DNA of 62,911 nucleotides, filler included, from Intoshia linei (lineage: Eukaryota; Animalia; Orthonectida): the NCBI GenBank assembly GCA_001642005.1. It is 5 parts of 5 records of this genome, joined end to end, with 100 filler letters (N's around TTAATTAATTAA, not from the genome) between each part and the next. Parts side by side here need not be neighbours in the genome. Positions count along the whole stretch, not along the records: positions 27,801 to 41,123 come from LWCA01001017.1; 4 more parts are not named here. One strand, 5' to 3'. Of the stretch, positions 1 to 57,427 are shown one piece after another. Numbering within the stretch: position 1 is the first letter of the stretch; each line of letters starts with the position of its first letter. A program made the translations under genes and the position numbers. The notes beneath the pieces were generated by a model. That model saw only the letters and a list, made by a program, of their open reading frames with translations. It made no database searches and was not told the DNA's origin.

Positions 1-1545
1 TGATATTTTAATCTATGGTAAGTCAACTGAAGAACACGATAACTCATTGAAATTAGTGTTAGATAAGATCAAATCACATAATGTTATTTTAAACCCAAAA
101 AAATGTAGCTTACGCCAGAAAGAATAGGTCGTACTATGTATGGTTTTAAATAAGGACGAATATTGTGCTGACGATGAAAAAATTAAAGCATTGAGAGAAT
201 TATCTGTTCCAACAAATATATCTAAGCTGTGAAGCTTAGCTATGTGGATGCTATGAATAGCCATTCATAGCACATACTCATACATACATACATATATAGC
301 ATATACTCATTACTCAAAATTTTTGATCAATTTGTATTTCTTTATATGATCTTACTCATAAAAATGAGATGTTTGAATGGACTACGAAACATTAAAAAGT
401 ATTTGATGAAGTAAAAGATAAAATCTCACAAGTTATACTCTTTACATTTGATCCCGACGCTGAAACAATTGTACAAGTTGATGATTCCAATGAGGGTATT
501 GGAGCAGTTTTAATACAAAAACAGAAGGGAAATGAAGTAACATTAGCATTTTATTCCTCACGTTTATCCCAAACTGAAGTAAATTATTCCACTGGGGAAA
601 AAGAGACATTGGCTTGTGTTATGGCAATTAAGAAATGTCATAGATATGTATATGGCCGTAGGATAACCCTTAGAATGGATCATTTACCATTGATATTCTT
701 ATTAAAAAATGTGACGAAAGAGCATGCAGCTGCAAGAATAAAGAGATGGGCTGTATTTTTACGTGAATATACATATAAACTTGAGCACGTGAAAGGCAAA
801 CATAACGAAATTGCAGATTGTCTATCACGGCTGCCAGGAAATATGGAAACAGAAAGAATTGATATTAAGTATGTTCACATGATTTCTAATCCACCATAAT
901 TAAGTATAAATGAAATTAATGAAGCAAGGGAAACTAATAAATTGTTAAATTAAATTATAAAATACATTTTAACACGGTGGCCATCAAAAGAACAGTTGTC
1001 ATTAAAAGAAATGAAATTCTATCATATCCGCAATGAATTATGGACACAAAATAATAGATTGATGAGGGGTGAAAATTGAATTGTATTACCTGAAATATTA
1101 TATGAGAAATGCATAAGCTTGGCTCATTTTTATCATATGGGTAAAACCAAAACTAAACGTTGTTTGAGAAAATATTTGTGGTTTCCATCTATGAATAAAT
1201 TAATAGACAAAGAAATTGATAAATGTTGGCCATGTGCAACAAGTGATAAGATTATAAAAACTCAAATTCCCTGAAGGCCCTTGGGAACTATTAGGTATAG
1301 ATATTGTAGGCCCAAGGTCGTTTACTCAGGAAGAAAAAAAATTTAATATAACTCTCATTGACCATTATTCAAAATGGACGGAATTTATGTTGGTTGAAGA
1401 AGTCACTACGAACAATATTATACAATTTTTAGAAACTGTTTTCTCCCGTGAAGGTTTACCCGACAGTATTATATCGGATAACGAATCACAATTTAAGTCT
1501 GAACAATGGAAATCGTTTTTAAATTACAATGGAATTAAACCAAGG
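1..1545 (+). mobile_element. Degenerate Ty3/Gypsy LTR retrotransposon pol (RT C-term, RNase H, integrase)
   Basis: The RNase H region reads 'DDSNEGIGAVL..YSTGEKETLACV..RMDHLPL..ADCLSRLP'. The integrase has a zinc finger 'H..HMG..LWFPSM..CWPC' and core 'GPWELLGIDIVGP..IDHYSKW..FSREGLPDSIISDNESQF'. There are multiple stops and frameshifts. Confidence 0.92.
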
Positions 1546-2161
1546 ATGTAATGTCCTAGTTACATTTTGTATATAATTTAATATAGTTAATTATTAAAAT
1601 AAAGTTTCATCAAAGTCTTGCATTTGATAAATTAAGGATATTGCAAATAGTATTGATAATTATTATTTAAAAACGGTTACTAAATATAAAGTTCAGTTGC
1701 TATAGTCAAATTAAATTCAAAAATTTTATAATAGCAAAACTAACAATTGTATTGGTTCAATACATCAAAGTTTAATTGAACTAAAAAATACAAAATTATT
1801 AATACAGAAAATAACTATAGTTATTACATAAATATTTGTTTATTTATATTTTCATAGTTCTGCGCGTTGTTATTTAGTTACACTGCCGTTGTTATAATGA
1901 TATCTATAGATATAGTTCAGCGTGTTCAACATAATATTTTAGGCAGCACCATTGTTGAATTTAAATTTTATTTCATTTACGTAAATTTGAACAAATCTTA
2001 AAAGGTATATTTTATTTAATGTATGCGTGAACAAAATGAGATTTTTCATTGAATTAATTACAGTCTTCGACTATAATTAATCATTACTATCTAAAAATGT
2101 TATGTACGCGTGTAATAGTGTTAACTGAAATTGAAATGTGATTTGATGATGATGATTGTAG

Positions 2162-2997
2162 ATGAGCTGCTATCATTGTGGACAGACAGGACATTATGCT
2201 AGAAATTGTGATTCCGGTGAATCGAAAGATTATCGGTCTAATGGAAGGGGTAACCGTGGAAATGATCGTGATGGTAGTTTTAATGATGAATTTTATGAGT
2301 CATTAAACTTTGAGTTACGTTATGTTGCGCAACTAAGTGATATGGCTTTTTTTGACTATGACTAAATTTATTCTTTAGATCGAAATGTTTGTTACAATTG
2401 CCAAGGTACCGGTCATATGGCAAGAGATTGTACTGAAGACCCAAAATGTCGAAAATGCGGAGAAGGACACCAGTCCAAAGAATGTACCAATAAACATAGT
2501 CGAGGAGGTCGAGATGGCGGATATTCAAGTAATTATTATTTACTACAGATATTATATTAAATAGGAGAACCCAGAGGAAATGTAGAATGTTACAGATGCC
2601 ACAAACAAGGTCACATTTCACGTGATTGCACTGAGGCAGATGGTATAATATATTATAATATTAGTTAAGTTTTAATTTAGGTGGCCGTGGTGGAGATCGC
2701 GGTGGTCGTAGTGGCGGTTATGAACGAAGAGATAGAGATAGGAGCGATGTAGTGTGCTATAGATGCAACGAATCTGGACACATTTCACGTGACTGTTCTA
2801 ACGGACAAAATGGATGCTTTAAGTAAATTTTTATTATTATTAATAATATATTTATTAGATGCGGAGAGGAAGGACACAAATCTTACGAATGCCCATCAAG
2901 AAATAGAGATAGAGACAGAACTAGTAGAGATCGAGATAGTGTACAATGTTATAAGTGTCAGGGCTTTGGGCATTATCAGAGAGAATGCACAGCCTAA
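2162..2997 (+). CDS. CNBP: CNBP/Gis2-like protein with seven CCHC zinc knuckles and RGG-rich linkers, 5 exons
   Basis: Spliced by hand over 4 GT-AG introns: MSCYHCGQTGHYARNC..CYNCQGTGHMARDC..CRKCGEGHQSKEC..CYRCHKQGHISRDC..GRGGDRGGRSGG..CYRCNESGHISRDC..CFRCGEEGHKSYEC..CYKCQGFGHYQRECTA*. Confidence 0.85.
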
Positions 2998-3899
2998 ATT
3001 AGAAAAATATATGTTTAACTCCATAGATAATTACAACATGTATTATAAATTCGACTATAAACTTTATTTTTCAAAACAAGGCATTCATTCTATCATCGCC
3101 TTGTCATTCCGACAACTGTTTTCCTTATTCCATATCAATTTGTTTCATCGATTTAAAATCTTTTATATATTTTTCAATGAAATAAAAAATTTTTATTTTA
3201 CACTTCGATATATATAGATCAATATCTTTTTTTTTCACTGAATTATTTTTCATTCTAAAAATTATGTAGGCCACCATAAACCTACGTTTCCTAAATGCAG
3301 GTTAGCGAAAAGAATTATGTATAAACGAATATCCTTTAGTATCAATATTTATAGTAAAAAAACTGAATTTATATTTTTTGGTCTGTTATTCGTTGTTATG
3401 CATTATTTTTTGTTTAAAATACGAGTCTTCAGTTTAAGCTAGTAAAATGAACTTTATAAAATGGCACTTTTGGTCAAATTTTAAGAAGTCGTGACATGTC
3501 TTAGTTAATAACAGTAATTTACACTACAAATTATGAATTTCAAAAATCTAATTTAACCTTAAGGTAAATTCCACAGTAAATCTTAAAAAATTTAAGTGAA
3601 TTTAGTTGTAAACAGTGAATCCCGAAGTAACACTGTCCGACAAAATTAACGTTTTTTTTTGACTTGGATATAATTATAATGGTATTATAGATAATTTCAG
3701 GGTAAACAAAATAATATAACTCTTATATGAATCGCTCAACTATTTGAAATAATCAGGTAATAGCTTTGTTGCTATAGGCAAACTAATAATTTAATTATTT
3801 TTATAAGTAGCTTAATTACACTAATTTTAAAATATAAAGAATCGTTTAGGATACAATTAATCGAAAAATAGAAGACGTCTTAAATTATTTATTATTATT

Positions 3900-4450
3900 T
3901 TAACTTATATAAAAGGCAACGCGATTTTTGTTTGTGTGTGTGTTAAGCTTTATTTATACTATATTAAATTTCAATTTCTTAATTTCACATCTTACGGATC
4001 AAAAACACCAATTCTCCCTCTTTTTGAAAATCAAACAAGTTGGAGAATTTAAATTAATATATACGCTGATGCGGCTTTTAAAATCATAAACATTATCATA
4101 AATTTAAATTTAAAAAAATTATATCTTCAAAGCCAAAACCACAAATTCCCCGTTTTTTTTTTTTGAAAACTTTTGAAAAAGTTTTATTCTGATAGAGCTT
4201 ATTCCAGTTAATATACATACAAAATTTCAACATCAGAAATCTACGCATTCCCGGTGAAAAATAATTATCAACAATATATTATCAACCAATATTTTTTAAA
4301 TATTGCGAAATTTTAAATAATCAAAAATTGAAAATATAAATATTGATTTAACGATTTAAAAAAAAATTTGGATTGTACGTTTACACATTTCCAATAAAGA
4401 CATATGGGTGAAAATCAATATAATTCATTTGTTCGGAATTTTTTTTTTGC
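3900..4450 (+). repeat. Dispersed non-autonomous repeat family, copy A (possibly Helentron/HINE-like)
   Basis: The core 'ctgatagagcttattccagtt..aaatctacgcattcccggtgaaaa' recurs at about 20710-20785 and inverted at about 5785-5900. There is a (GT)n stretch near the end. Confidence 0.75.
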
Positions 4451-5609
4451 TTTAATTTAACAATAATATTAGTTTACGCAGTAACTGCTAGTTTAAGAAA
4501 TTATAGTGTCAATTTAATAAAGTTATAGCTAAAAATCGACATAACTACTGCTTAAAGTGTTACTGCTCATTTAAGTAAAATGTTACTGCTAGTTTAAATG
4601 TATCCCTTTTTTAAACTTTGTAAAATAATTATGGTCTCAAAGCGTTGTTTTTTTTTAAATGAGTATTTTTACTTTATACTTTAAACTTTAAAAACGCCAT
4701 CAAAGCTTCTCATAAAATTACCTGCCTTATTCGAATATTACCCTTGAAAATCCAAGTTACCTCGTTATGAAATAGAAAGATTTTTACATGTAAATTCATC
4801 ATCACAAAGTATATTATAGTCTCATAATATAACAGTAATAATAGTATTAATTTTTTAATAAAATTTTTTAATAGATTTATTTTAAATAATATATTAAAGT
4901 TCTATTATAGGACCAAAAAATTGTTATGTGGACCACGTTGAGAATAACTGATATAGAATCTTTATTATACATGAATAAAAATGTTGCCAAAATTTTAGTA
5001 AGTGCATTTTTTCTGTATACTCGGTAAATTGAATTTTATTTAAATTAAGAATATTTAAGTAAAGCGACCAGCAGTACATTATTTAACAACATCTAAAAAT
5101 TTACCAAACTTTAGTAAACACGTACTATTACTAGCAAAATAATTTTAATATTAACATTTAATACACATTTTTACATACCAAACTTTAAGTACAAAACTGA
5201 TTTTTATTTACTTTTTCGTCTAAAATAAAATTTTACGTAAAGATAGAGAAGCTTAGAGAGACCGTACGTAAAGAAAGTGTATTGTAGTGACAAATTGTTC
5301 TACCTTTCGATTTTTATGCAATGCATTATATGTATACAATTTATATAAATATTGAAATACATTATCGTCAAAATTATGAATTATTATCTTAAACTATTCT
5401 CTAATATTAAATAATTATATTTAGATAATAAGAAAAAAATTGGAGAATCAAATATAAATATAAATGACGGTAAAATAATTCATTCAAATTTATACAACAC
5501 ACTAATTTAATGTACAATATACTCAAATATAATACTGTATACAGTGAATTGTGTCATAATATTCCAATAATAATTATGTATTGGAAATTACGTTAATCTT
5601 TTTTGAAAA

Positions 5610-6405
5610 TTTAGCAATTTTTGGTGCCTCCTTATTGATTTTTTCTTTATTGAAAATGTATAGGCGTTTAATGCACATTTTTTTTAAAATTCTAGGATCA
5701 ATATTTACATTTTCAATTTTTATTTTACAAATCTGTAATCGAAATATTTGAAAAATATTGGTTCATAATATATTAAAAATTATTTTTCATTGGAAATGCG
5801 TAGATTTCTGGGATTGAAATTTTGTATTTATATCAACTGGAATAAGCTCTACAGAATAATTTTTTTTAAAGGTTAAACTTTTGTATTTATATCAACTGGA
5901 ATAAGCTCTATCAGAATAATTTTTTTTTTTAAATTTCTGACCATTAATTATTTCATTTTTTTTGTATAAAATATTTCGGAAAAAAATATGAATACTAAAA
6001 TGCTTTTTTGACCGTGAAGTCGTCACTTATTTAGATTGAAATTTTTTATGTGTGTTAACATGATACAACTCTACCACCTGTAAATTTTAAAAAAGGAGAA
6101 GGGAATTTGTGGTTTTGGCCCTGAAGATATTTTTTTAAATTTATGATAATGTTTATGATTTAAAATCCGTATCATCATATATATTTTTTTATATTCTCCA
6201 AGTCGTTTGATTTTCAAAAAAAATGCAATTTGGGTTTTTGACCCGTAAGGTGTGAGTTTGGGAGGTTGAAATGTATCTTATTATCACCCCGGAAAAAACT
6301 GTAATTGAAATGTGACTTTATAAAATTCTAAGACTGGTAGTTATTGAAATAAAGTGGATTACACACACACTTAAACAAATATTGCGTAGCATATTATATA
6401 TGTAA
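5610..6405 (-). repeat. Same dispersed repeat family, inverted copy with internal tandem duplication
   Basis: It is the reverse complement of 3900-4450 ('gaaatgcgtagatttctg', 'atcaactggaataagctct' twice at about 5832 and about 5892). 'ccccggaaaaaactgtaattgaaatgtg..aaattctaagactggtagttatt' is shared with 22861-22920. Confidence 0.8.
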
Positions 6406-7013
6406 GGATGTATGTTATAAAACCATGCTAAAATATTTAGAATTTAATTTATAAATATTAAATATAAATATTAATAATAGATGAATTATATTATTACTTT
6501 ATAACATATTAATGAATATATAAATTAGGGTGTCCATTTTTTTTATTATTAAAATCTATTTTGCATGTGGGTGCCTTTTTTGATTTTTACCCTTTATTAC
6601 TCAAAAGAATTAAATCGGTTAATATTTACCCCCTCAAATGTAATTATTGAAATTCATACAAAAATGTAAGGATACATTTAAAATATAACTTTATTTTATA
6701 TATAATTAGATTTGATTTTGTTTTTATGGATATTTATGTTAGTAATTCCAGTGATTTATCATGCTTTGTGCACCATTTTGTTTTTTTAAATTCATTTCTA
6801 GCCTATTTATTTTGGTTTTCAAAGATGCTTGAATTTCCCATAATTAACCTCTAAAACTATATATAAAGTTTATTATTAACTCAAAATTAATTTCATAATT
6901 GTGACCCAAAAATGTTTTTCGGTTGTGTGATTTTGTTTATAGCTTATAGTATAAGCTATAAGCCTTATACATTATACATTATATACATTATGTATGTATT
7001 ATATAATATTTAG

Positions 7014-9369
7014 TGATCGATGTAATCAAAAATTCCACAAATAAGAATATTTTAAATATAACTTCAATAAAAAATGTTGTCAGTATAATAAACAACACAA
7101 ATGTGAAAACCGAAAAGGATATTATTATTTGGTATTTAAAAAAAAATTATTTCCCTTCAAATATCCAGAAAAATGATACTATTGTCATTAAGCCATCCAA
7201 ACATACAAATAACGAAACTACAAACAAAAAAAATGTTCAACAGACTAATAATAAGATTAATACCAATATTTATATGATTACTAAAATAAAAAACCATATT
7301 GAAGATTTCCGATTAGGTATGTTTACTTTTAGAGTTTAACTAACCATTTTATTTGATTATATTTATGATTATTTATTGATATTGAACTATTATTAGATTT
7401 TATTTGATTTTTTTCAATTCATATGGTATCATAGTTACAATAAATAGAAATTATTATGTATTAATTATTTTTTTTAGTTTAAGGGGTACCAACTGCGAAG
7501 TATGTTGAGAACCGCTGGTTTAGGGCATACGAACATTTGAAATACTTGACTAATAATGACAAGTAATGCTGCAGCCCAAATAAAAATCAACTTTTAACCA
7601 TTTGAGGAATATTCGTTATTTTAAATTGAGATTTGATATAAAATTTAAAGCAAGCTATGTGTAATTGCATTGTATTTATTACACCCCACGTCATTTTTGC
7701 ACTAATGTATGCTTTGTGGGTACTTTAATGTATTAAAGCTAAATTACAGAAGAAATGCGAAGCCAATAAATTTGATATTTTTTACTTAAATAATTATTTA
7801 AATAATAAGTTAATTATAATTAACTATCGCACAGTATTTTGTGATATTCAAATTTGTCGATATTATCTATAGCACAGGCTTTTGCGATTTCATAATTTAT
7901 TGATATTATTCATCGCACGAGTATGTGGGATGGATCCTCAAAGAGTTAATAACATTTTTCAAAAATATTTTTTTCACGTTTTTGGGTTGCAATTTATGAT
8001 CGTGCTTATGATTTTAAAAACGATCATAGAGTTTATGTTTTATAAAGTGTTAGGACCTTTTTAATATATAAAAAAAGGGTGGTTTGGGGTTATGACTATG
8101 AAGTTGTAAATTTCTAAGGATGAGATTTAAAACTATGGTAATTACTTTCAAACGCGTTCCACAATATATGTTTTTTTAAATTTTATGGTTGATTTTATTT
8201 TTAAAAAAAGATAAAATTGGGTTTTTGACCCTGAAGGTCACAATTTTGGAAAATCAATTTATGATAGTGCACCACTCTTGGAAAATTGTATTAGCAATTG
8301 GGATTTTTAAAAAATAGTAATTTGTGGTTTTGGCCCAGAAGATATACCGTTTTGAAATTAAAATGTATGATAATGTTCATGATTTTAAAATCTATCAGAG
8401 TCTACGTTATTTTAATTTCTAGGATTTGTTTGATTTTTAAAAAAATGGATAATGGTGGTTTTTTACCTTGAAGGACTCAATTTCTGAAATTGAAATATGC
8501 CCTAAAACCTCACCCTCGAAAAACTTAGTTTTAATTTGTATTTGTTGAAATTCTAGGACTCTTTATAAGTTAGGATTGGAGCAAATTCTCGAAAAATAAT
8601 TAAATAGGTGAGATGTGATGTTTATTAGACATGATATCTCCTTTTATGTATTGAATTGAAGTTGTATCATTTCTAAAAGATACACAGTTTTTTGGTGTTA
8701 TCTCATACATGTAGTTGATTGAAAATTTATCTTACAGCCATCATAGCGACAGTATATTGTGACTTCTGTCTTTTGGCAAGGTATTTGTCATTGCATAGTA
8801 ATGTTTCTGTTATTAGACATCTTTTATATATTTAAATTTTAAATTAATATAAATACTCCATTGATAGATACTGTTCAGTTTTAACGGGGTTATGTTACCA
8901 TATTCTACTGTACAATTGATCGAGGTCACAAATAACCATCAAAAAAATATTTTTTAATCGTCTAATATGAAAATTTTTTGTTTTCTGAAAAAAAATTAAT
9001 TAATAACTATTAATTATATACATGTATATAATATATTTTAATATAATTTTTTTATTATTGAACCAATTTCAGAAACATTATACATACAACATGCTGTATG
9101 GGTCTGTGTATTTGAAAGAATATTATCCACTAATCTTTAATATCAAATTAAAATACAATAATATAGGTTCCATTTTATCAATTATTATGGTTTCAATTTT
9201 TCTGATAATTGTAGCAGTTGGCACATGTATAATGCTAAAAAAGAGCCATACTTTGAATGGAATGGCATTACGCATAAATGAAAACGAAACTGCGTATTCT
9301 CCACTAATCGATATTAGCAGTGATAATCAAAATGATAATATGTATAAAAAGTTTAATACCCTGTTATAA
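7014..9369 (+). CDS. 3' exons of an orphan single-pass membrane protein (N/T-rich ectodomain, TM, tail with YSPL)
   Basis: An exon at about 7014-7317 follows an acceptor 'tttag' and ends in a GT donor. The last exon reads 'SILSIIMVSIFLIIVAVGTCIMLKK..ETAYSPLIDIS..*'. The 5' end and exon linkage are unresolved. Confidence 0.45.
8060..8570 (-). repeat. Dispersed repeat family copy with subrepeats 'ggtttttgaccctgaag'
   Basis: The same subrepeat motifs occur at 6100-6340, 57880-58070 and 59900-60080. Confidence 0.65.
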
Positions 9370-12400: not shown

Positions 12401-15400
12401 AAATAAACCAACGTTCTGAAATTTAATTGAGTTATTGTATTCAACGATAATCCATATTTAATTCATTATATTTTAAAAAAACTGGTGTTTTTTTGTAACT
12501 AATTTTTATTATTTTTTAAAAAAGTAGTAAAGAATCGGAATCGTCGCATCACTAATTATAATGATATATTTTAACATGTTAAATTTTTCAAAGTCGCACC
12601 GAGTACAAATATCTTAAAATTTTGTGGTATGAAAAAACGGATGTGACTTAAAATATGAAATTATTGCATGCATAAATATTCAATAAAACACAAAATGTGT
12701 TTTTAATTGAAAAAATTATATTTCACTCGAAGCATGCTGGGAATTGAATTATAACCTAAAAAAATTTTAAAAATTATGAGATAATTTAAATTTAAATGGC
12801 CCTAAAAATGAAAAATTTTTAAAAAAAAATATTTTAAGATTATAATGTAATTAAGTAAATATTTACCCAAAATTTGTACGGTTTCCAAATTTTTTCTGTC
12901 TATTTTGTCAATATTGAATTCTATTAAATTTTCAACATTAATTGTTGGTATCCCTAAAAATGATGCATTAGAATTGCTACTATTCAAAATGAGAGCTTCA
13001 TTATTCATATATTTAGGGAAACCTAAAAATACATGACATTAGTCATACAAATAACCTTTATTTTGTGGGATATTAATAGATCCATTAATATTTTCATTGA
13101 TTTTTGTGTATGCAGAAACAAAATTGCTATTTTTAATTATTGGAAGAGGTCTCTTATTAACAGGAACAGCTTCAGATGAATGCGACGATTGATTTGTATT
13201 TGAAGGAAAAAGTAGTTCCTTTTCAGTTGATTCTAAATTCCTGGAAAACATTTCTTGTGCAGTATTCCTAATAGTATGATATAATGTACAAGTTAAAATT
13301 ATTTACTTTTTTATAAATTCGGAAGGATTTGATTTATTTCTCAAATTACGATTTATATTTGCTAATAGAAGGTTGTTTGAATTTTCACGGAAATAATCAT
13401 CCGAACCTAAAAAATATATGTTTTAAGTATAAATATGTTTTACGACTAGAATCGACCATTAATAATTTTCTTTTAGTTTTTGCTTTTGAAATTCGAACGC
13501 TGCAAAAAACAGCAAAAAATATTAAAATAATAATGTATATTATAGATCCAACCACAGAAAGTATTATTATGTGTGATTTAGACAATCGAAGAGGAGATTG
13601 TGATTTTATGACATCTTTTTTATTTTCTATGGTGAATTTTAATATTACACAACAATATTTAAATCACCTGTTTCAAACTTCATTATGACTTTTATTTCGT
13701 ATTGTTTCATTATTATTTTGGTTTTTTTACCCATGTTAATCTCACAAGTGTATACTCCTTCTGTCAAAGCAGAAAACTGACGAATTTTCAATTTTCCATA
13801 AGAGTAAATCTGAATAAATATAAGAATGGACTGTTACAAAAACCTCAAAGATTTCGCTATTGTACATGTTGAGGTTATTTGGAACATGCCAGGTAACAAC
13901 TGGCTTACTAGATATGTAGTTAGTCAACATGCACTCCAAAATAACTTCTGAATTCATTTTTGAATGCCTTTCTATTTTTTTCAGTTCAGCGTAGCGATTA
14001 TCTACGTTAATTGTAAAAAGCAAATTATTCCATTACCGATAATTATTAAATTTATATTTTTGTATATTGTTTCAGAAGAATCAGATGCTTGACATGTGTA
14101 CATTCCACCGTCGGTAAATTTAATCGGATCAAACACTAACTCTGATTTTGACCTTTGACGACCAGTTAATAAAGCTTTTTCTGCGTTCGTGTCTAGCGTT
14201 TCTGCTGACTTATTGAGAGCATCAAAATTTGTATTTTTTATAGAAACATGTTTTTGCAGCCCTAACAATCCTGCATCTAGTTTCACTCGTTTCGAAATAT
14301 TGTGTTCTTTTAGAGGAAATTTATTATTTAATTGATCAAAGTTTTGCGAGCCTGAAATATTTGCTTCTCTAAACCACCTAGTTGTTAACTGAAATTCTGA
14401 TTGTGCGTAACATTCTAAGCTGGATTTATCACCAACATTCAATACTTGATCTTCAAATGACGACAAAAATTTAATACTCTCTAAAAATAAATATAATCTT
14501 TGAATAAATATACTATTACGAATAACATATAGAGTTGCGTCTTTAGAGTATACAGTTTTATACACAGATGAATGAACTAAGCATCGATATCTACCTTCGT
14601 GATCTGACGTCACAGAAGATATTTCCAAGATCCCCTTTTTTCGATTTACAAATGTGTTGGGTATATTCTATAATTTAATGTATAACACAGATTATTTCAA
14701 ACCTGCATATCTTTTTGATCCTTTTGCCATGTTATATAGGTTGAAGTGTGATTGTCTGAATCTACTAAACATTTAAATCGGGTATTCAAATGTTCGTGGA
14801 TTTTAACATTGTTGGGGTTTCTCAATATTCGAGGCTTTTCTAAATGCCAATAAATGGGGAAATGAATATATTACTAGTTATGGAAATCGTCACTGATTGA
14901 CTATATGAACCAGCAATGTTTTCAATTGTACACACATAAACCCCGCTGTCAGATAACGACAATTTTCGTATCATCATTACTTGTTTGTTTACTATTAAAT
15001 TAGTTTTGTTTTCAGAGTTTATTTGATGCCATCTATTTTTAATATAATATATTAAATTCATATTTACTTGTATTTGACGAATGGCAATCCATATTCAGAA
15101 ACACATTTTAAATTTAATGGAGCACCAATTGGCATTATTTGTTGCATATTATTCAAATCTTCAAATGGTTCTATTCTAGAGATTTTATCAATATCTAAAT
15201 GAAATTTAGTATTTTTGATTTTAAGATGTACGATGGTTTAATTCAAAATAAATGGCACGCAATTAGCAGTAAAAGTACTACTTTTAGGGTACATTTATAT
15301 TATATTACAGTAGTCGCTCTATACAGTAACTACTTTGGGAAATTTTTCTATTCATCAGATTACTAGTATATCAGATCGACTATGACCAAGATTAATTATT

Positions 15401-27700: not shown

Positions 27701-27800
27701 NNNNNNNNNNNNNNNNNNNNNNNNNNNNNNNNNNNNNNNNNNNNTTAATTAATTAANNNNNNNNNNNNNNNNNNNNNNNNNNNNNNNNNNNNNNNNNNNN
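27701..27800. other. Assembly gap linker (N44-TTAATTAATTAA-N44)
   Basis: An identical 100-nt linker occurs four times and carries stops in all six frames. Confidence 0.97.
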
Positions 27801-29896: not shown

Positions 29897-30424
29897 AGAA
29901 TGAAAGCAGCTTTTACTTGAATGCCATTTCGTTGACGAGGCTTATTGAATATGCGTCGCATAGCAGTTTTAAATAAAAAATAGAAAGTCAATTATATCAA
30001 TTCTCTGCAGTTTATCTGAGAAAAAAATTTTATGTGCCACTTTACAAAGTAATGAAAGAGTTAGCTATGATAGATTTTGAGATGAATTAAAGGTAATATT
30101 TATTTGTTTTTCAAATAAATGTTTATATTATTTTTATAGAAGGAATTGAATACCTTTGACAACAAATGATTTTTCAATCAATGAAGCCAGTATAATTAAA
30201 CTGGCTGTAGATACTGAATGTCTTATTCTATGTGAAAAAATTTTGTAACATTTGTAATGCATATACTTTTGAGTGAATTATTGAACCATTCTACAGTTTT
30301 ACTAATCAAAGTTTTTTGAACTTGAAAAAAATTCACAAAGAACCAGATGGTATGAACAGGGGCGTCAACAAAAAGAAAAGGCGAATTTACGTTAAACGGA
30401 TAATGCATTACATTTTTCCACGCA

Positions 30425-30750
30425 ATGATTATTAAGGTAACTTTATTGGACGGTATCGTCAGAATTCTAGTCGATACTGGGTCACAAAAAAGTTTTTGCA
30501 GTATCAAATTTTGCAATCAATTACAGGCTAAACTAGTCACTAAACGATCTTTCGGTGGTGAATTTGGTGGTCCCATGTATTCTGACTCATGTTTGATTTT
30601 ATCCTTAAATTATAGCAATGTCTCATTGGAATTGAAATTTTATGTTTTGCCTCAATGGCGTTATGATTTTGATATCATTTGTGGCATGGAGTTTTTATTT
30701 AATTATAGAGCAGTATTAAATGTTGCAGAAAATTGTCTATTTTCAATCTT
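30425..30750 (+). mobile_element. Retroelement (Ty3/Gypsy-type) aspartic protease fragment
   Basis: 'RILVDTGSQKSF..FYVLPQWRYDFDIICGMEFL'. Confidence 0.85.
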
Positions 30751-30759
30751 ACTTACAGT

Positions 30760-31700
30760 CAAACGAGCAGTCCGTAATACTATATAATAGTAATGGGCTA
30801 CAAAACGAGGCTGATTGTATTTCTGCAATCTGTAACGTCCTACCAAAATTTAAACGCAGGTTGCAGTGATTGGAAGATAGGGCTAGTAATATGTCAACCT
30901 TAGCATTGAATAATCTAACAACGCCTATTTGTGATCTAATTGCTATGATTAACGATAACAACGACAACATGGGGGCCATTGATACGACAGCTATATTACA
31001 AGAATGTACAAGAGCAACACATAAGGTGTGGGTGCTAGAACACGTCGCGTATGATCTAAATGTCGATACTTTCTTACACTCAATGGACGTCAATGACGTA
31101 GTAGTTGCATATCTGACTTACAATTATATGCCGGATATACTTCTTGCATCAAAAGCCTTCGCTGAAGGCACTAACATGTCAGCAAAAATAATTGCTGAGA
31201 AAAACTGTATTGAATTTAACTTCTCGGACGGATTGGAGAAAGGATATGTATCCAAATTTGACGACTATAAGAGCTGGTTGACATTCTTACCAGTTATGAC
31301 AACAAAGTTATATCAATATAATATTGAAATAAAACGGATGTGTGGTTCAGAGATCATGTTAGAAATAACAAAGGTGATGCTCCACACGCCGATCAGCAAT
31401 CCAACAATAACACGACCACTTTATGCACGCGACGAGTACATAATCCTTACGATCAAAATAGATTTGCAGGGTAACAATATGCAGTCTGTAGTAATTAGAT
31501 GCGGCTTAACAGAATACAGAAGGTATTATAGTGCTGTCGAAGCACATTACCTGGCTAACAAAAGCGATGACGATAACAAACTAGTATCCACTGCTATGCG
31601 TTTAGAAAGAACAGCGAACACGAGATTTTTGATCGCGAGACAGAGTTTTTCATTGTCTACGTGAGTTCAATCGCATAACACAATTCGTCAAGAAGTTGAC
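30760..31700 (+). pseudogene. Endogenous viral element: alpha-like (Martellivirales; virga/nege/endorna-like) replicase methyltransferase region
   Basis: Intronless 264-aa ORF 30870-31664, visibly GC-richer than its flanks. 'LQEC....VWVLEHVAYDLNVDTFLHSMD...VVAYLTYNYMPDILL..IEFNFSDGLEKGYVSKFDDYKSWL..YNIEI...IMLEITK' matches the Vmethyltransf pattern 'QxC..A..HS.YD......M.......F.P.LL..I.F.F.D....Y.H....' in order. The frame continues upstream of an in-frame TGA at 30867. Confidence 0.75.
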
Positions 31701-31949: not shown

Positions 31950-33783
31950 AACAAAATGATTATCTGTTGAAAGCGACCTAACGCTAAAATTATGCCGTAA
32001 AGTATGTTACCAATATGAAATAGTGACCGATGCAAAATGTCATCTTGTAGAAAAATAACCGGTAGTTTGTAATATTCAACAAAAAGTATGACCTGGTTTG
32101 TTATCATTGTGGAAAATCTTATGATAACACACATTATAAAATATGCAAAGCAACAAATGCGTAGTGCATGAATTGTGGTAAAAAAGGTCACTTTAAAAAT
32201 TTTTGCAAAAATCCTATTAGTAAAAATCTCAAGTATAAAAGGATCAGTGCTATATATGATGAAGGTTCTTCTAAATTTATTACTATTTATGTAAATAAAC
32301 AACCAATTAAATTTTTAATTGATACAGGTAGTTGTGTTTCCATTATTCCCCATACCACTATAAGGGAAGATTTCAATAGGGATCATAATCATATAACTCT
32401 AACATCTTTTAGTGGACACCGGATCAAACCAATGTTCTGTTTCACCGGACTTGTCGAATATAACGAATTACAATGCTCACATGAATTCTAAATAGTACAG
32501 AATATTTCTTTAGCAATTCTTGGATTAGATTTGATATATAAATTAAGGTTAAATTTAAATAAAATTTTGAAATTATGTGCATCCAATGAACAAGAATTAA
32601 ATCAGGTTAACAATATAAATTCTAAAACGTTTCCTACTAGTTTCGTAGAATTACCCAAAATCAATAATTTTAAATTATATATTAAATTAAAAGATAATTT
32701 TATTCCAACAATTCCTCGAGTAAGTCGTACACCTTCCATTCTATATACAGTAGTAAGGTGAAAGATAAATTACATGAGTTAGTCAAAGTGGCATAATATA
32801 ACCAATAGATCGTAGTGATTGGACCAGTTCCATTGTAGTAGCTTCAAAGAAAAATGATGATATAAGAGTATGTGAGAAATTTAAATAAAAACATTGAAAT
32901 TGATACTTATCCCTTACCGTTAATAGAGAACTTCTCTACTATATTATATTATAAATAATAATATATATTACTCTTTATACTCCAAATGCTCTGCAGTTAA
33001 AATGCTTACTAATCCTACCACACCTTTAACTATAAAATTTTTAAAAAAAGTGCTTTCAAGAGAAGGTATCCCTTTCAAAATTATATCAGATAATGGACCA
33101 CAATTTGCATCAACATAATTTAAACAATTTTTACAATCTATGGATATTCAAAATTGTTTTACTGCTAATTATCATCCACAAAGTAACGGGCAAGTGAAAA
33201 ATTTTAATAAAACTTTAAAGCAAAGATTGAAATTGCTGTTCAAGAGGGTATGAGCATTAGTGAAGCAGTTACAAAAATTCTAGGCAATTATCGAATGTCA
33301 CCACATACTATTACTGGGTACCCACCTATAGAACTACTACATGGAACAGCTATTAACATTAATTTAAGTGTAGGTAATGTCCCAATCAATAAAACCAATA
33401 AAATGAAGAAATTCGACGTAATGTGAAAAAAATCATAACAGAATGATAGGCAATGATAAAACCTGGAGAAAGAAAACTCTTAAAATCGGGGATCGGGTAA
33501 GGATTGCGATTGAAAGTGTTTAAAAGGTTATCTGATGTCTGAACCACATAAAGTAATTGAAATTGTAGCAGAAAATACTTACAGATTAGATGATAATCTT
33601 ATATGGAATGAATCAAACTTGACTAGATCAAATCTGTGTACAGATGAAAAACAAGATGATTATCCCTATATGGTACAAGAGCATTTATTAGCTGATGAAC
33701 ATATTGATGCTGAAACAACTGGTCGACCAAAAAGATTGATTCAACTTTCTAGCAAATACAAGGATTTCGTGATATCGAACTAA
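31950..33783 (+). mobile_element. Degenerate, internally deleted Ty3/Gypsy element (gag CCHC, protease, RT start, integrase)
   Basis: CYHCGK..H..C, CMNCGKKGHFKNFC, FLIDTGS, WTSSIVV..DIRVC, 'SREGIPFKIISDNGPQF', 'TANYHPQSNGQV', and the tail 'GRPKRLIQLSSKYKDF'. Confidence 0.92.
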
Positions 33784-37242: not shown

Positions 37243-38348
37243 AATGGTAAACTCGGGAATGTCAGATACAACATTGGTGGCAGAAGTGCTTGGTAAACCC
37301 AACATATTGTTATCAAGTGATGGTGAATTATTGATGAACGTGAAAGATTGGATTGATAAATTTGAAAATTTTCACTTTTGCATTATGAGGATATAAAAGA
37401 GAATTGAAAAGTAGTTTTATTGAAAATATGCATCGGTGACGAGGCGGAAAGACGCTTAAAACGATTTAAAAAATATGATGCAATAATATCAGAGATTAGT
37501 CATGGCAGATCAAAAATGTATTGAGAAAAAGATATGAATTTTTATCCGTGAACCAAGAACCAAATGAAAGATGTGTACTTTCGTTACTCGACTAATCAAG
37601 GCTTATAATGAAACTGAATATACAGATGATTCTATAAGGTTAGATGTATTTATTAAAGGATATTATTGTAATACACTAAAATCCAAATTGTTAATTGAAG
37701 AAAAGCTGACCTGGGATCGTGCAAGAAAAATTTGTTTAAATTATGAAACAATTAACAAATTGCAAGTGAATTATATATCTAAAAATAAATTTGTAGAAAA
37801 ACTATGTTTTCGTTGTAAATCTAAATCTCATTTGGCATCATTTACTAAATGTCCTGCTAGAAATATTAAATGTTTTAAATGTAGCAGAATTGGTCATTTT
37901 AGCAAATGTTGCAACCCTGATCTACAGAAAAAGAAATCAATTGGTACATTTAATTTCATAAAATTTATAGATATAAAAATAAAACAATTGTAATTAACAT
38001 TGACGGTAGAGATATTGAAATAATCGTAGATACGAAAAGCGAAGTGAGTTTACTACCAATAAGTTTTTTAAATTCTCAGCCTATTATTAATAGTAATTGT
38101 AAATCGATATCTTTTAGCGGTCATACAATATGCCAACGAGGAGCATGGACTGCAAAATGTAACTACCGAAATCGAACAGTGACACAACGATTTGAAATTG
38201 TAGATGGTTGCAAACCCATCATGGGATTAAAATTAATAAATCATTTAAAAATTGAATTGAATTCCTTATTTTGTAGAAATATCAATAGTATCTCAAAAAT
38301 TTCCACATTTTCAATGCAAATTAAATTAAATCAAAAATTGACAAAAAA
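37243..38348 (+). mobile_element. Degenerate Ty3/Gypsy gag-protease
   Basis: 'VKDWIDKFENF', CFRCKSKSH..C, CFKCSRIGHFSKCC, 'IIVDTKSEVSLL..KPIMGL'. Confidence 0.88.
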
Positions 38349-39062
38349 ATGATTAAAGGAAACAGAAAAATACTGCTTGTGCTAGATAATACATCCGTGC
38401 ATTACGTAGATAACAATTATAATAACATAGAGCTTCATTATTTTCCACCAAATTGAACATCAAAAATCCAACCTATAGACCAAAGAATTATTCATTCTTT
38501 TAAATCTAATTATAGAAAATTTTTTTTAAGAAATCTGAGTATGATGAATGGAAGTGATGAAATATTTTTTATGGACCAAATAAAGAAATTCAAATTGTTA
38601 AATGTTCTTCCACTTATAATTGAATCATGGAAGACTGTATCAGTTGATACAATAATCAATTGTTTTAGTCATGCATATACAAACTGGGAATGTTAAAATG
38701 CGAATATATCGATGAAAAATGCAATTGTAGATAAAAATTTGACTGAAGTCAATGATGACACAGCATTCTATGATATTCTACCTATATGTGATGACAATTG
38801 TTGTCAAGATGACATATTTTTGGAAAATATTTTTATCAACAACGATTCTGATAACATAGAGGAATTGGAAAATGAAACAAATAAAACTGAATTAATTGGT
38901 TTTTCGGATGCTCTTTACCATCTTAAAAAAGTAGAACTCTTTTTTCTTCAATCAAATGGTAAAGATGTTGAACAAGTCAGTACCTTAAGAAAAAATCTAT
39001 TTGAAATAAAAAAGAAGTCAGTTAAAATCACTGATTATTTCATGAAAAATATTAACAATTAA
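38349..39062 (+). mobile_element. Tigger/pogo DDE transposase remnant abutting the Gypsy copy
   Basis: 'RKILLVLDNTSVH..IELHYFPPN*TSKIQPIDQRIIHSFKSNYR..ESWKTVSVDTIINCF..KITDYF'. Confidence 0.93.
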
Positions 39063-39549
39063 AATGTAAATCAATGAATTAACATTATTTGATTTTAGCA
39101 ATAGTTTATATATTATTTAACAGAAAAATTATGTGCGTCATTATAATTACAATGTCAATAACATTCCAGTGATTCTAAAACTTTTTGAGTAACATCCCAT
39201 AAACAAGGTTTTTAATTCTCTCAAAAGTTATATCATTTTATTTTTTTGTATATACACCCATATCTTCCAGTCAGTATATCGTTCTTGAGAGTTTTCATAT
39301 TATGTTCTTTTTTAAACGAAAATCAAAATAAAAATTTTGTTAAAAGTAGGGTTAAAAAAAATTACTAATTCACAAATATGTTGAATCTAAAAATGTGCAT
39401 TGTAAAGTACAAATGTCGAAAAATTTGTAAACTCTGTTAATATTATGGGTCCATATAAATAAATTGATCGTAATATATGGTTATTTTTATATTTCTAATA
39501 TTTTCGTTAAATGAGATTTTGACTGTACCTGAAAAAAATCAATAAACGA

Positions 39550-40950
39550 AATATTGCCACTAAAATCAAAGACCTCAATCTCATGAGTATTTATTTTCCT
39601 ATTTACGAAATCAAACTTCTATTACTCATTCAGCAAAGATCTGTTAAATATAACGATGATATCATAAACGGTAAACCCTTGATGTTCAATAACGATATCT
39701 TGTCCAATCTTCAACTCAATTACACCAAGATAATTAAAACCATTATCAGCATCACCAAATTTAGGACCAATGAACCATTTTTTAATAATTTGTCAACAAT
39801 TAATAAGGTCAACGAACAACCTGAAATGTTCATATAACTCTTATCCTGCTTTTACTGTTCTGATGTTATTCAAATTTTCGATGAGCCTCTTGATAAATTA
39901 AATTCCAACCAACTAACCTCGAAAAAGGTTACGTTTGATATGGAGGAAACAACCAAAAAAGTGGGTTAAGATTCCTGAATCGCAAATAAATGTAATATCA
40001 TAACTTACAACCAGAATAATTGGGTAGACTGACAAAAACCATAAGTTCACTAAAGAAATTTTCTATACAGATTCAAACCTCAACAAAATCCTTACAACTG
40101 ATGATACCGTACTCGCGTCAAGTGGTTGGGTTCTAGTTAAGTATCGCGGGAAAAAGGGTGAACTTATCACGTAGACAATCAAGCAAGGTAAGGATTTTAG
40201 TAAATTGTTGTGTGGACCTATCCCCATTATGGACTGGACCCCAAAAGAATTTGACCCTAAGTTCCGGATATTCATTCGTCAAAACATCGATTTAAGGGCA
40301 CATCAATCTGTCTTAACTGATCTTTCACAAAGGTTATTGAAATCAATCAACAAAATTAGGATTGAATGTTCAGAACTACAACAACAGGATACCAACGAAA
40401 GGAAAACTTCGAGATTAAAAACCATTCAAGGGACATTTGATATCTCAAATTTTTATGGAAGTATAAACCTAGGTATTACCAATATGCTTAATAAAATAGT
40501 CGGTTCAATGACAGGTGTTAACAATGCTTTTCTTTGGTTGTCAAAAATTCTTAAGATGGGCTCTCTTCAGTTCGTCTCACCTACTGTCTCTAATACTATC
40601 ATCTCAAATCTCCCTAATTTAATTCCTTTTACCATATGCGCACTTGGGGCACAGGAAGGGATGAACCAAGCTTTTTGGTCTCTCTTGACTAGGGGATTTT
40701 CATTATGGCCACATTATTTCTATTTATCATTTCTACGGTTTACTGGTAAACGTCCGAGTAAAGGGGGGGGGGATAACATGGTAACGACAACCTGCTTTGA
40801 TTATAGGATAAATTTTACATTAGTCAATATGGTACTTTATGAAATGAAAGACATTGGCACTAAAATTGGGTTGGAATTTCACTAAAAGAATCGGTTTTTT
40901 CAATTTTATCAAACAACGACTGCCAGTCCACAACTATTGAAGGTTTCCAA
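39550..40950 (+). pseudogene. Endogenous viral element: negative-strand RNA virus (Mononegavirales-like) L-protein RdRp core
   Basis: One frame carries ordered motifs: pre-A/F 'KKGELIT*TIKQGKDFSK' (40151-40204; cf. KEKELK..GRxF), A 'TFDISNF', B 'LGAQEGMNQAFWSL' (cf. GGIEGxxQKxW), C 'GGDNM' (cf. GDNQ) and D 'IGLEFH/KES' (frameshift), then 'PQLLKVS'. Stop-interrupted frames extend upstream to about 39550. Confidence 0.82.
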
Positions 40951-40989
40951 TTAACCATGATGACCAAAGGACTTGCGCTTAATTTTCAA

Positions 40990-41121
40990 GACACTCTCGA
41001 TACCCAACATTTTTTCATAGATACAGAGCCAGAGACTGAAATATTAATGGACACTCCAGTGACTAAAATAATTTCTAAAAAGCCTAAATACCTATCTGAT
41101 TATATTCTCGATACACCCTGA
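40990..41121 (+). mobile_element. Probable Gypsy integrase C-terminal tail adjoining the L fragment
   Basis: '..TPVTKIISKKPKYLSDYIL' resembles the 'R..K.P.YL.DY' pol terminus. Confidence 0.5.
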
Positions 41122-41123
41122 TA

Positions 41124-41223
41124 NNNNNNNNNNNNNNNNNNNNNNNNNNNNNNNNNNNNNNNNNNNNTTAATTAATTAANNNNNNNNNNNNNNNNNNNNN
41201 NNNNNNNNNNNNNNNNNNNNNNN
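41124..41223. other. Assembly gap linker
   Basis: N run with TTAATTAATTAA. Confidence 0.97.
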
Positions 41224-41533
41224 TTTAACATTTTATAAAAAACATGATTAGTTTTTGTACTATCAAACAAAATGTATAATTTTGTTGGGGGGGGGGGGGT
41301 CCAAGACTTTTGACCGGCACTGTATAGAAAATATAATTTCGACGTTCGTTAAATGAAATATCCGTTAAATGAGATTTTGCTGTAGTACGTATTTTTCTGG
41401 CCACTTTATTTTTTGGCAACATTTTTAAGATAACGAAAATTGTTAACTTTTGTACAATAAAACTTGTTATAACAACTCAATTCTACGTTCCACTGTAGAC
41501 AAGTTTCACTGTCTTATGTAAAAAAATGCATAC

Positions 41534-45799: not shown

Positions 45800-45899
45800 N
45801 NNNNNNNNNNNNNNNNNNNNNNNNNNNNNNNNNNNNNNNNNNNTTAATTAATTAANNNNNNNNNNNNNNNNNNNNNNNNNNNNNNNNNNNNNNNNNNNN
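45800..45899. other. Assembly gap linker
   Basis: N run with TTAATTAATTAA. Confidence 0.97.
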
Positions 45900-57327: not shown

Positions 57328-57427
57328 NNNNNNNNNNNNNNNNNNNNNNNNNNNNNNNNNNNNNNNNNNNNTTAATTAATTAANNNNNNNNNNNNNNNNN
57401 NNNNNNNNNNNNNNNNNNNNNNNNNNN
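57328..57427. other. Assembly gap linker
   Basis: N run with TTAATTAATTAA. Confidence 0.97.

Follow-up and report, generated by a model that had tools for sequence, protein, structure and literature searches.

We analysed a stretch of 62,911 nucleotides from the orthonectid Intoshia linei (GenBank assembly GCA_001642005.1; the window) and found, at 40028-41121 on the + strand, a 1.1-kb fragment of about 300 codons running from premotif A to motif E of a viral polymerase. We read this fossil as a truncated and broken DNA copy of the core of an L-type RNA-dependent RNA polymerase (RdRp), integrated into the host genome, likely through reverse transcription by a retrotransposon, and predicted to be inactive (probability about 0.85). 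Its largest part is an open reading frame (ORF) of 236 codons. Endogenous viral elements (EVEs) are an ordinary and well-known kind of element; the donor lineage is, provisionally, undescribed in the collections searched.

The fossil, its relatives and its reading frame

An exhaustive phmmer search with the 236-amino-acid (aa) ORF over 1.84 billion representative proteins returned three matches at E<=0.001. P0001 (189 aa), annotated as hypothetical on a 13.7 kb genome contig of the orthonectid Intoshia linei, is 70% identical to ORF residues 109-184 (E 3.6e-22). P0002, an unnamed protein of 2701 aa, matches ORF residues 22-175 with its residues 1088-1241 at 30% identity (E 1.1e-7); it is the sole long ORF (189-8294) of an 8402-nt metagenome contig (L001) from an environmental sample, and has a 91%-identical variant. 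The third match, P0003 (E 9e-5), has 429 aa with internal repeats and aligned in six short pieces; we discounted it, since low complexity likely explains the match. A scan with the family alignment added L002, a metagenome contig of 2769 nt with a 519-codon open stretch that is 45% identical to P0002 residues 1184-1630. P0001, P0002 and L002 are thus the three relatives found in all collections searched. No relative was found in IMG/VR by scans with P0002 and with family alignment A3, and a word-indexed protein search returned nothing for the fossil (in its 'near' and 'longer' modes) and only P0002 itself for P0002 residues 900-1500.

P0002 retains KEGEAKCRPFAK, LDCQNFCGS, GSAQGMNQAIWS, KGDNII and LGITLSAKETV, colinear with the window, and tblastn with P0002 against the whole window hit 40244-40687 in frame 2 (E 1.5e-13) and, colinear with it, 40870-40971 in frame 1 (E 0.057), and nothing else. 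Fossil and P0002 share the same catalytic motifs in the same order at about 30% identity over 150 residues; they differ in that P0002 is intact, ten times longer, environmental and not from the window's organism, and at 30% it is too distant to be the donor species. The roughly 2200 residues of P0002 on either side of the core (1-1000 and 1450-2701) have no Pfam, PDB or reference-L similarity. L002:552-2111 is an intact stretch without motif A and everything downstream, between flanks rich in stops; L002 may be another endogenous or defective copy in some other organism.

Premotif A and motifs A, B, C (GDN), D and E follow one another in order and at the usual spacing, all in register. Premotif A (motif F), PKEFDPKFRIFIRQNIDLR / KEFDPKFRIFIRQNIDLR at 40244-40297 (+), pairs with KEGEAKCRPFAKTPLDVR of P0002 and with KErElk..gRmFa of the profile of reference L cores described below, and motif A, FDISNFYGS at 40436-40462 (+), pairs with LDCQNFCGS of P0002 and 'DlskWN' of that profile. 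Motif B, GAQEGMNQAFWS at 40646-40681 (+), pairs with GSAQGMNQAIWS of P0002, with the L-core GGiEGlrQKlWT and with a paramyxovirus L chain. Its columns GMNQA.WS are invariant in the window, P0002 and L002, and the motif B of the group is the variant G[AS].[EQ]G.NQA.WS. Motif C, GGGDNMV at 40763-40783 (+), the first ten bases of which are all G, pairs with KGDNII of P0002 and L002. The last two lie in frame 1 of the + strand: motif D, VGISLKESV at 40870-40896, pairs with LGITLSAKETV of P0002, and the motif E region, NNDCQ..G.Q....KG at 40912-40971, with NNCQK..G.Q....KG. The P0002 stretch aligned to this frame-1 piece reads LGITLSAKETV...NNCQKITVFGNQMSSLVKG.

The ORF, at 40175-40882 on the + strand, covers premotif A to motif C, as seen by phmmer, tblastn, hhalign and a hidden Markov model (HMM) of L cores. 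It belongs to frame 2, which is open over 40028-40885 apart from a single TAG at 40172-40174 and closes at a TAA (40883-40885), and it ranks third in length among the window's 14 stop-to-stop frames of 130 codons or more. Since the local base composition predicts one stop per 14.5 codons, the probability of 236 stop-free codons is about 5e-8. In a frameshift zone at 40850-40885 (+) the homology moves from frame 2 to frame 1, the tblastn hits in frame 2 stopping at 40687 and those in frame 1 starting at 40870. An 85-codon frame-1 piece (40864-41121, +), aligned to P0002, carries motif D and the motif E region and ends at a TGA (41119-41121), two bases short of the contig joint at 41124. Read as frame 2 followed by frame 1, the fossil contains one internal stop against about 25 expected from composition, and the remaining five frames hold 18-32 stops each over the same stretch. 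The damage consists of one TAG, one frameshift and truncation at the contig end, leaving about 300 of 2701 codons (~11% of the relative P0002). This is the fragmentary, disrupted frame of an EVE (TAG at 40172; frameshift at about 40850-40885).

Upstream of the ORF, 48 codons in the fossil's frame (40028-40174, +; GC content 0.37-0.43) are ended by the TAG at 40172-40174. They have no significant alignment to P0002 and are likely a poorly conserved region 5' of premotif A; the fossil likely includes the 72 codons that begin at 40028, because they share its frame and its raised GC. No polymerase similarity was detected in 39528-40243, either by tblastn with P0002 or by Smith-Waterman alignment against 200 shuffles (z -0.7 to 1.1), and an upstream extension of the fossil into this interval was dropped, as neither tblastn nor Smith-Waterman (z at most 1.1) gave it alignment support. 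Past the joint at 41124-41223, tblastn with P0002 found no continuation of the fossil elsewhere in the window.

The original prediction had placed a Mononegavirales-like polymerase with scattered stops at 39550-40950, on the strength of motif strings in one intronless frame. These strings are indeed present in one + frame (KKGELIT at 40151-40171, FDISNFYGS at 40436-40462, GAQEGMNQAFWS at 40646-40681, GGGDNMV at 40763-40783 and GLEFH at 40868-40882), and the stretch is, as described, less AT-rich than its surroundings: GC content is 0.364 at 40001-41000 against 0.21-0.32 in most other 1-kb bins of the window and about 0.26 in the immediate surroundings. Two of the assignments have to be moved. 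Motif F had been put at KKGEL..GKDF (40151-40198), about 30 codons too far upstream, homology giving PKEFDPKFRIFIRQNIDLR at 40244-40297; and GLEFH, taken for motif D, is an out-of-frame reading in the frameshift zone, the homologous motif D being VGISLKESV at 40870-40896 in the neighbouring frame. The frame is disrupted as predicted, by only one stop and one frameshift; and of the predicted extent the core is present and runs on to 41121, with 39550-40243 lacking polymerase similarity.

Placement among negative-strand polymerases

Reference L proteins were obtained by scanning IMG/VR with a degenerate DNA pattern for the Mononegavirales motif B. The scan returned at least 120 stretches, against a chance expectation of roughly one or two. 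Forty-nine ORFs of at least 1500 codons were reduced to 46 by removing those more than 70% identical, and cores of 660 residues were taken from these. All ten references that were sampled matched both PF00946 and PF14318, with PF00946 scores of 270-1376 bits. With an HMM built from the 46 cores, the scores were 22.2 bits for L002, 17.1 for the P0002 core and 8.2 for the window ORF, the catalytic motifs being in register; the maxima over 500 shuffles of each were 3.6, 2.1 and 1.3 bits, respectively.

Profile-profile comparison gave a clearer separation. Against the 46-core profile, hhalign gave 98.2% (E 5.2e-14, 385 columns) for the four-row family of the window and its three relatives, 96.8% for P0002 with L002 and 91.8% (E 7.3e-7, 210 columns) for the window ORF by itself. 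Twenty column shuffles reached at most 0.6%, and the reversed alignment 0.1%. The same queries gave 1.8% (four-row family), 2.5% and 0.5% against a profile of 21 bunyavirus-type L cores, fetched likewise by one phenuivirus-like motif (five of five sampled match PF04196) and the sole representatives of the segmented side in this comparison. The two reference profiles gave 48.6% against each other. RdRp-core homology at the profile-profile level is therefore above the controls and above the other negative-strand polymerases compared, and by sequence comparison the fossil sits with the L-type cores of the Mononegavirales-like side. The profile of family alignment A3 also matched a paramyxovirus L chain (7yot_A, E 0.039) among PDB sequences, with motifs A, B and C in register. 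In language-model features, the neighbours listed for the window ORF are all viral RdRps, of several phyla, which counts as a lead only; those displayed for the P0002 core, at 0.97, are without exception polymerase clusters of Negarnaviricota. P0002 and L002, unlike the window sequence, were not selected by motif resemblance. An AlphaFold2 model of the P0002 core from three alignment rows was unusable (mean pLDDT 32.8).

In the order and register of its motifs the core agrees with the Mononegavirales L RdRp (PF00946): premotif A is KE.E.K..R.F, motif A is D..[KN][WF], motif B is G..[EQ]G..Q..W[ST], motif C is GDN and motif D is K.E[ST], and motif E is shared as well. It differs in several respects. 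Searched against Pfam at E<=10, the four translated pieces of the window matched no RdRp family, the sole row being FapA at E 0.11, and P0002 had no match at E<=0.1; phmmer searches of PDB with the fossil and with P0002 gave chance rows only. The window pieces and P0002 both miss the curated threshold of PF00946, for which the weakest sampled reference scores 270 bits. In a FastTree phylogeny of the 46 references with the window, P0002 and L002 (619 columns), the trio forms one long-branched clade outside all references; this tree was rooted at the midpoint, with no outgroup, and its references are limited to those with the exact motif B pattern. The P0002 core also starts about 500 residues later than in Mononegavirales L, motif B lying at residue 1224 as compared with 518-820 in the 49 long reference ORFs.

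Downstream of the core, P0002 has no detectable PF14318 or methyltransferase region. For capping (PRNTase, PF14318) there was no Pfam match and hhalign gave 0.4%, the window fragment itself stopping short of the region; for the methyltransferase (PF14314) there was likewise no Pfam match, and hhalign gave 0.2%. A divergent reference left out of the profiles scored 99.7% (capping) and 98.4% (methyltransferase) in the same test. As the P0002 query is in effect one sequence, a very diverged capping or methyltransferase domain could escape it. The fossil is L-like in its polymerase core only, and by the Pfam model or by the tree it falls outside Mononegavirales.

With this restriction to the core, the Mononegavirales-like assignment of the original prediction is borne out (hhalign 91.8% for the window ORF and 98.2% for the family, against 0.5-2.5% for bunyavirus-type cores), as is its suggestion of an undescribed lineage: there is no Pfam family, three relatives were found in the searched collections, and the group lies outside all 46 reference L proteins. 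It had also given GGIEG..QK.W with GDN as the Mononegavirales signature, against GDD in chuviruses and SDD in ophioviruses and yueviruses; GDD, GDN and SDD are all absent from the text of PMC4384744. Of the checks that it had proposed, comparison with PF00946 gave no match of the window pieces at E<=10; comparison with RdRp profiles and a tree gave a profile-profile match to L cores, with the clade placed outside all 46 references; and at the proposed Tigger/host junction (39000-39600), a contig described below (39499-40772) joins a repeat end to the fossil.

What is unusual about the fossil is its donor, which had a Pfam-invisible polymerase with one full-length relative among the 1.84 billion representative proteins. 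The fossil links P0002, a hostless environmental sequence, to an animal lineage, the nearest annotated copy being orthonectid. It provides a starting point for tracing a living virus, its further genes and its host range, and, when orthologous copies become available for comparison, a marker of minimum age. RdRp surveys that rest on Pfam models overlook such fossils. Viral-family RdRP genes of Intoshia linei detected by Pfam are reported in PMC6396948, and the present fossil would escape that kind of detection because Pfam does not recognise it. Our literature searches found no paper on the endogenous viral elements of orthonectids.

A broader proposal can be put forward only tentatively, at somewhat less than even odds: that the fossil, P0002 and L002 represent a new negative-strand lineage at the level of an order or class, marked by an L core with GMNQA.WS and GDN, about 1000 extra N-terminal residues and the lack of capping and methyltransferase regions. 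Such a lineage would long have infected orthonectid-like parasites and left several diverged genome copies, including one in fusion with the fossil of an alphavirus-like polymerase.

Presence in host DNA and competing explanations

The fossil is present in X1, one of five sequencing runs considered. X1 behaves as a DNA run because a host receptor-kinase exon region appears in it as an unspliced contig of 2273 nt (depth 12) that keeps its introns. A 1278-nt X1 contig covers 39499-40772 at depth 14.1 and a 341-nt contig covers 40763-41099 at depth 12.7, both with 0 differences. Because these depths compare with 12 for the kinase region, the fossil is present in DNA at host-gene depth. The longer contig also joins it to host sequence. 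The right end of a high-copy host repeat lies at 39440-39527 (strand not assigned), with unique sequence from 39528. Summed contig depth is 507 in the bin 39440-39534 as compared with 14 in the bins to its right, and four X1 contigs diverge at 39527; the repeat therefore ends at 39527, 500 bases 5' of the fossil. Between them, on the fossil's 1278-nt contig, lies a unique spacer (39528-40027, +) of GC 0.29-0.33. The repeat end is likely the terminus of a pogo-like element or of its deletion derivatives, and its terminal 17-mer is found again at 41363-41379. Homology to an RNA virus, DNA form and contiguity with host sequence, which together define an EVE, are thus all found here, with the reservation that X1 may be the assembly's own source. 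The integration in host DNA that the original prediction had inferred agrees with this, X1 keeping introns at host-gene depth and one contig carrying the host repeat end.

Two further runs, X2 and X3, belong to a study other than that of X1. From the kinase gene, which lies on the minus strand, both splice out introns of 35 and 39 nt whose ends read CT..AC on the + strand and so GT..AG in the gene; we infer from this that the two runs are RNA-derived. Pieces with 0 differences cover 39612-39764, 39885-40089 and 40873-41079, and because X2 and X3 carry these identical pieces, the locus is present in independent material. It is probably transcribed at some level, X2 and X3 not addressing strand, amount or function; parts of the fossil without cover in these runs carry no evidential weight.

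The course of events that we propose would begin with a virus from a deep negative-strand RNA lineage lying outside the Mononegavirales sampled here; this virus would have infected an ancestor of the AT-rich metazoan host or reached the host germ line. Its RNA would have been copied into DNA by the reverse transcriptase of a retroelement, the resulting copy would have integrated into the host genome, and it would now be a largely neutral relic. Reverse transcription by retroelements followed by integration is the accepted route for such fossils. Broken-frame negative-strand virus fossils, often within transposons, are reported to be common in arthropods (Li et al. 2015, PMC4384744). Like the invertebrate EVEs described there, the present one consists of part of a polymerase gene, its frame disrupted, and is surrounded by the remains of transposons in the DNA of an animal; unlike them, it lies in a very AT-rich non-arthropod metazoan, and its donor lineage has no named member in the searched collections. 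Polymerase activity of the fossil is excluded on general grounds, because it holds about 11% of the protein and carries a stop and a frameshift. A present role, for example as a template for small RNAs, may exist but is speculative.

Several points weigh against this reading. No curated family recognises the fossil or P0002, Pfam and PDB phmmer both being negative, and the profile match to 7yot_A is marginal, a spurious macro-domain match ranking higher. The window's own scores are perhaps flattered, because it was chosen for resembling the motifs that were used to fetch the references. The 1250 post-core residues of P0002 gave 0.4%, 0.1% and 0.2% in hhalign against capping, connector and methyltransferase profiles, respectively, and because capping and methyltransferase regions are undetected, the whole of P0002 is not shown to be a textbook L protein. 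P0002 is also unsupported as a virus genome segment: L001 has no other genes or complementary ends, its terminal complementarity being a 7-nt match only, which is uninformative. X1 gives no independent support for contiguity, because the window may be assembled from it. In addition, no single contig bridges the 10-G run at 40763-40772, which supplies the G of motif C; the independently assembled X1 contigs break exactly there and overlap only in these ten bases. Because they end and start inside the run, its length is not secure, and because they overlap only in it, what speaks for continuity across motif C is the original assembly together with the colinearity with P0002. The mechanism of integration is a proposal, no target-site duplication, poly(A) tail or retroelement junction having been identified. 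Finally, the 236-codon open frame exceeds what long neutral decay would leave, and the copy is either young or constrained.

The last of these points would suit a domesticated host gene or exon, that is, a selected and expressed fragment acting, for instance, as an antiviral decoy or as a regulatory or small-RNA source. It would account for 236 codons standing open where composition gives a probability of about 5e-8, for the identical pieces in the two RNA-type assemblies X2 and X3, and for the 70%-identical stop-free stretch inside the annotated Intoshia linei protein P0001. Yet an in-frame TAG stands upstream, a frameshift falls within motif D and only about 11% of the polymerase is left; the RNA pieces are short (153-207 nt) and could be unspliced or genomic carry-over, and recent integration accounts equally well for the open frame. 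We consider domestication unlikely.

A fossil of a negative-strand virus from the segmented side (Polyploviricotina, bunyavirus-like) is a still less probable source. In language-model features a bunyavirus cluster (Bunya_RdRp) comes first among the neighbours of the window ORF, at 0.92, and for the P0002 core bunyavirus and influenza PB1 clusters tie with a Mononeg_RNA_pol-bearing cluster at 0.97. P0002 resembles Bunyavirales L (PF04196) in being a single ORF with its core mid-way in a long protein, its motif B at 1224 lying near the 1032-1182 of most bunyavirus-type references, and capping and methyltransferase domains are undetected in it. Unlike Bunyavirales L, neither fossil nor P0002 has a match to PF04196, L_protein_N or a PA-C-like domain. 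Profile-profile comparison gave 0.5-2.5% overall, and for the two multi-sequence queries 1.8-2.5% against the 21 bunyavirus-type cores as opposed to 96.8-98.2% against the 46 of Mononegavirales type. Motif C is GDN, where Bunyavirales have SDD, motif B fits the L-core G..[EQ]G..Q..W[ST], and among PDB sequences only a paramyxovirus L was listed.

Very little weight falls on the explanation that the sequence is not integrated at all but is a contaminant, a cDNA artefact or a mis-join in the assembly of an exogenous virus to host repeats. The fossil does lie at a contig end, X1 may be the assembly's own data, and the contigs break at the ten Gs. Against this, an RNA virus would be unexpected in an intron-retaining run, the depths of 14.1 and 12.7 equal the 12 of the host gene, a single contig links the fossil to 500 bases of unique, AT-rich DNA and to a repeat end at depth 507, the reading frame is broken, and a 13.7-kb contig of an orthonectid genome has another, diverged copy in its annotation.

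P0001 also bears on the origin from a positive-strand, alphavirus-like virus (Alsuviricetes), with GDN as a decayed GDD, an idea to which we attach next to no credence. In its favour, an RdRP_2 match (PF00978, E 7.8e-10) directly precedes the L-like copy in P0001, an ORF at 30870-31664 on the fossil's contig weakly matches PF01660, and DISNF is similar to D.SKFD, a form of motif A in Alsuviricetes; but the RdRP_2 match is confined to P0001 residues 57-113, the window ORF has no match to RdRP_2 at E<=10, the L-core profile match spans 210-385 columns, and GDN is not a product of decay, because the intact P0002 and L002 also have it. Similarity to the window begins at about residue 109-114 of P0001, where the RdRP_2 match ends, so the P0001 model joins two different viral fossils. 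Either neighbouring fossils were merged by the gene model or the insertion is truly chimeric.

Contig setting and neighbouring elements

The fossil, in our preferred reading an integrated L-type core, lies at the right end of a 13.3-kb contig (27801-41123). The window as a whole is very AT-rich metazoan DNA (GC 0.21-0.36 per kb) with exons of receptor tyrosine kinase, Ig-domain and DLG-type L27/PDZ kinds. Its contig joints, at 27701-27800, 41124-41223, 45800-45899 and 57328-57427, have no strand and follow the pattern N44-TTAATTAATTAA-N44; the spacer TTAATTAATTAA carries stops in all six frames, and the contigs on either side need not adjoin in the genome.

Otherwise the contig holds remnants of long terminal repeat (LTR) retrotransposon protease and integrase, a G-patch ORF, a gag-like CCHC ORF and a pogo/Tigger DDE_1 remnant. 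The last, the C-terminal half of a pogo/Tigger-type transposase with in-frame stops, lies at 38325-38690 (+) and matches Pfam PF03184 at E 1.5e-19 with stops read as X. Directly 5' of it, the stretch 37568-38352 (+) carries the gag-like ORF with CCHC knuckles (a weak Pfam match) and, after it, a further ORF; these retrotransposon remnants share their orientation with both virus-like ORFs of the contig.

The second virus-like ORF is a 264-codon open frame at 30870-31664 (+), between retroviral-type protease remnants at 30404-30784 and 32165-32488. Its match to PF01660 is weak (E 7.3e-6, 25.7 bits with a cut-off of 27), and the frame is possibly a second fossil, left by a positive-strand RNA virus. 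This lead to an alphavirus-type methyltransferase gained no added support from PDB, IMG/VR or a six-frame Pfam scan of the whole contig, in which neither a viral helicase nor RdRP_2 was found.

Runs of G stand out in this DNA of 26% GC, with one of 10 bases (40763-40772) and another of about 13 (about 41287-41299); both may be weak points of sequencing or assembly, or real expansions. The receptor-kinase gene on the - strand has introns at 14002-14036 (35 nt) and 14481-14519 (39 nt) with GT..AG ends, both skipped by the RNA-type contigs, and at 35 and 39 nt the introns of this host are therefore extremely short.

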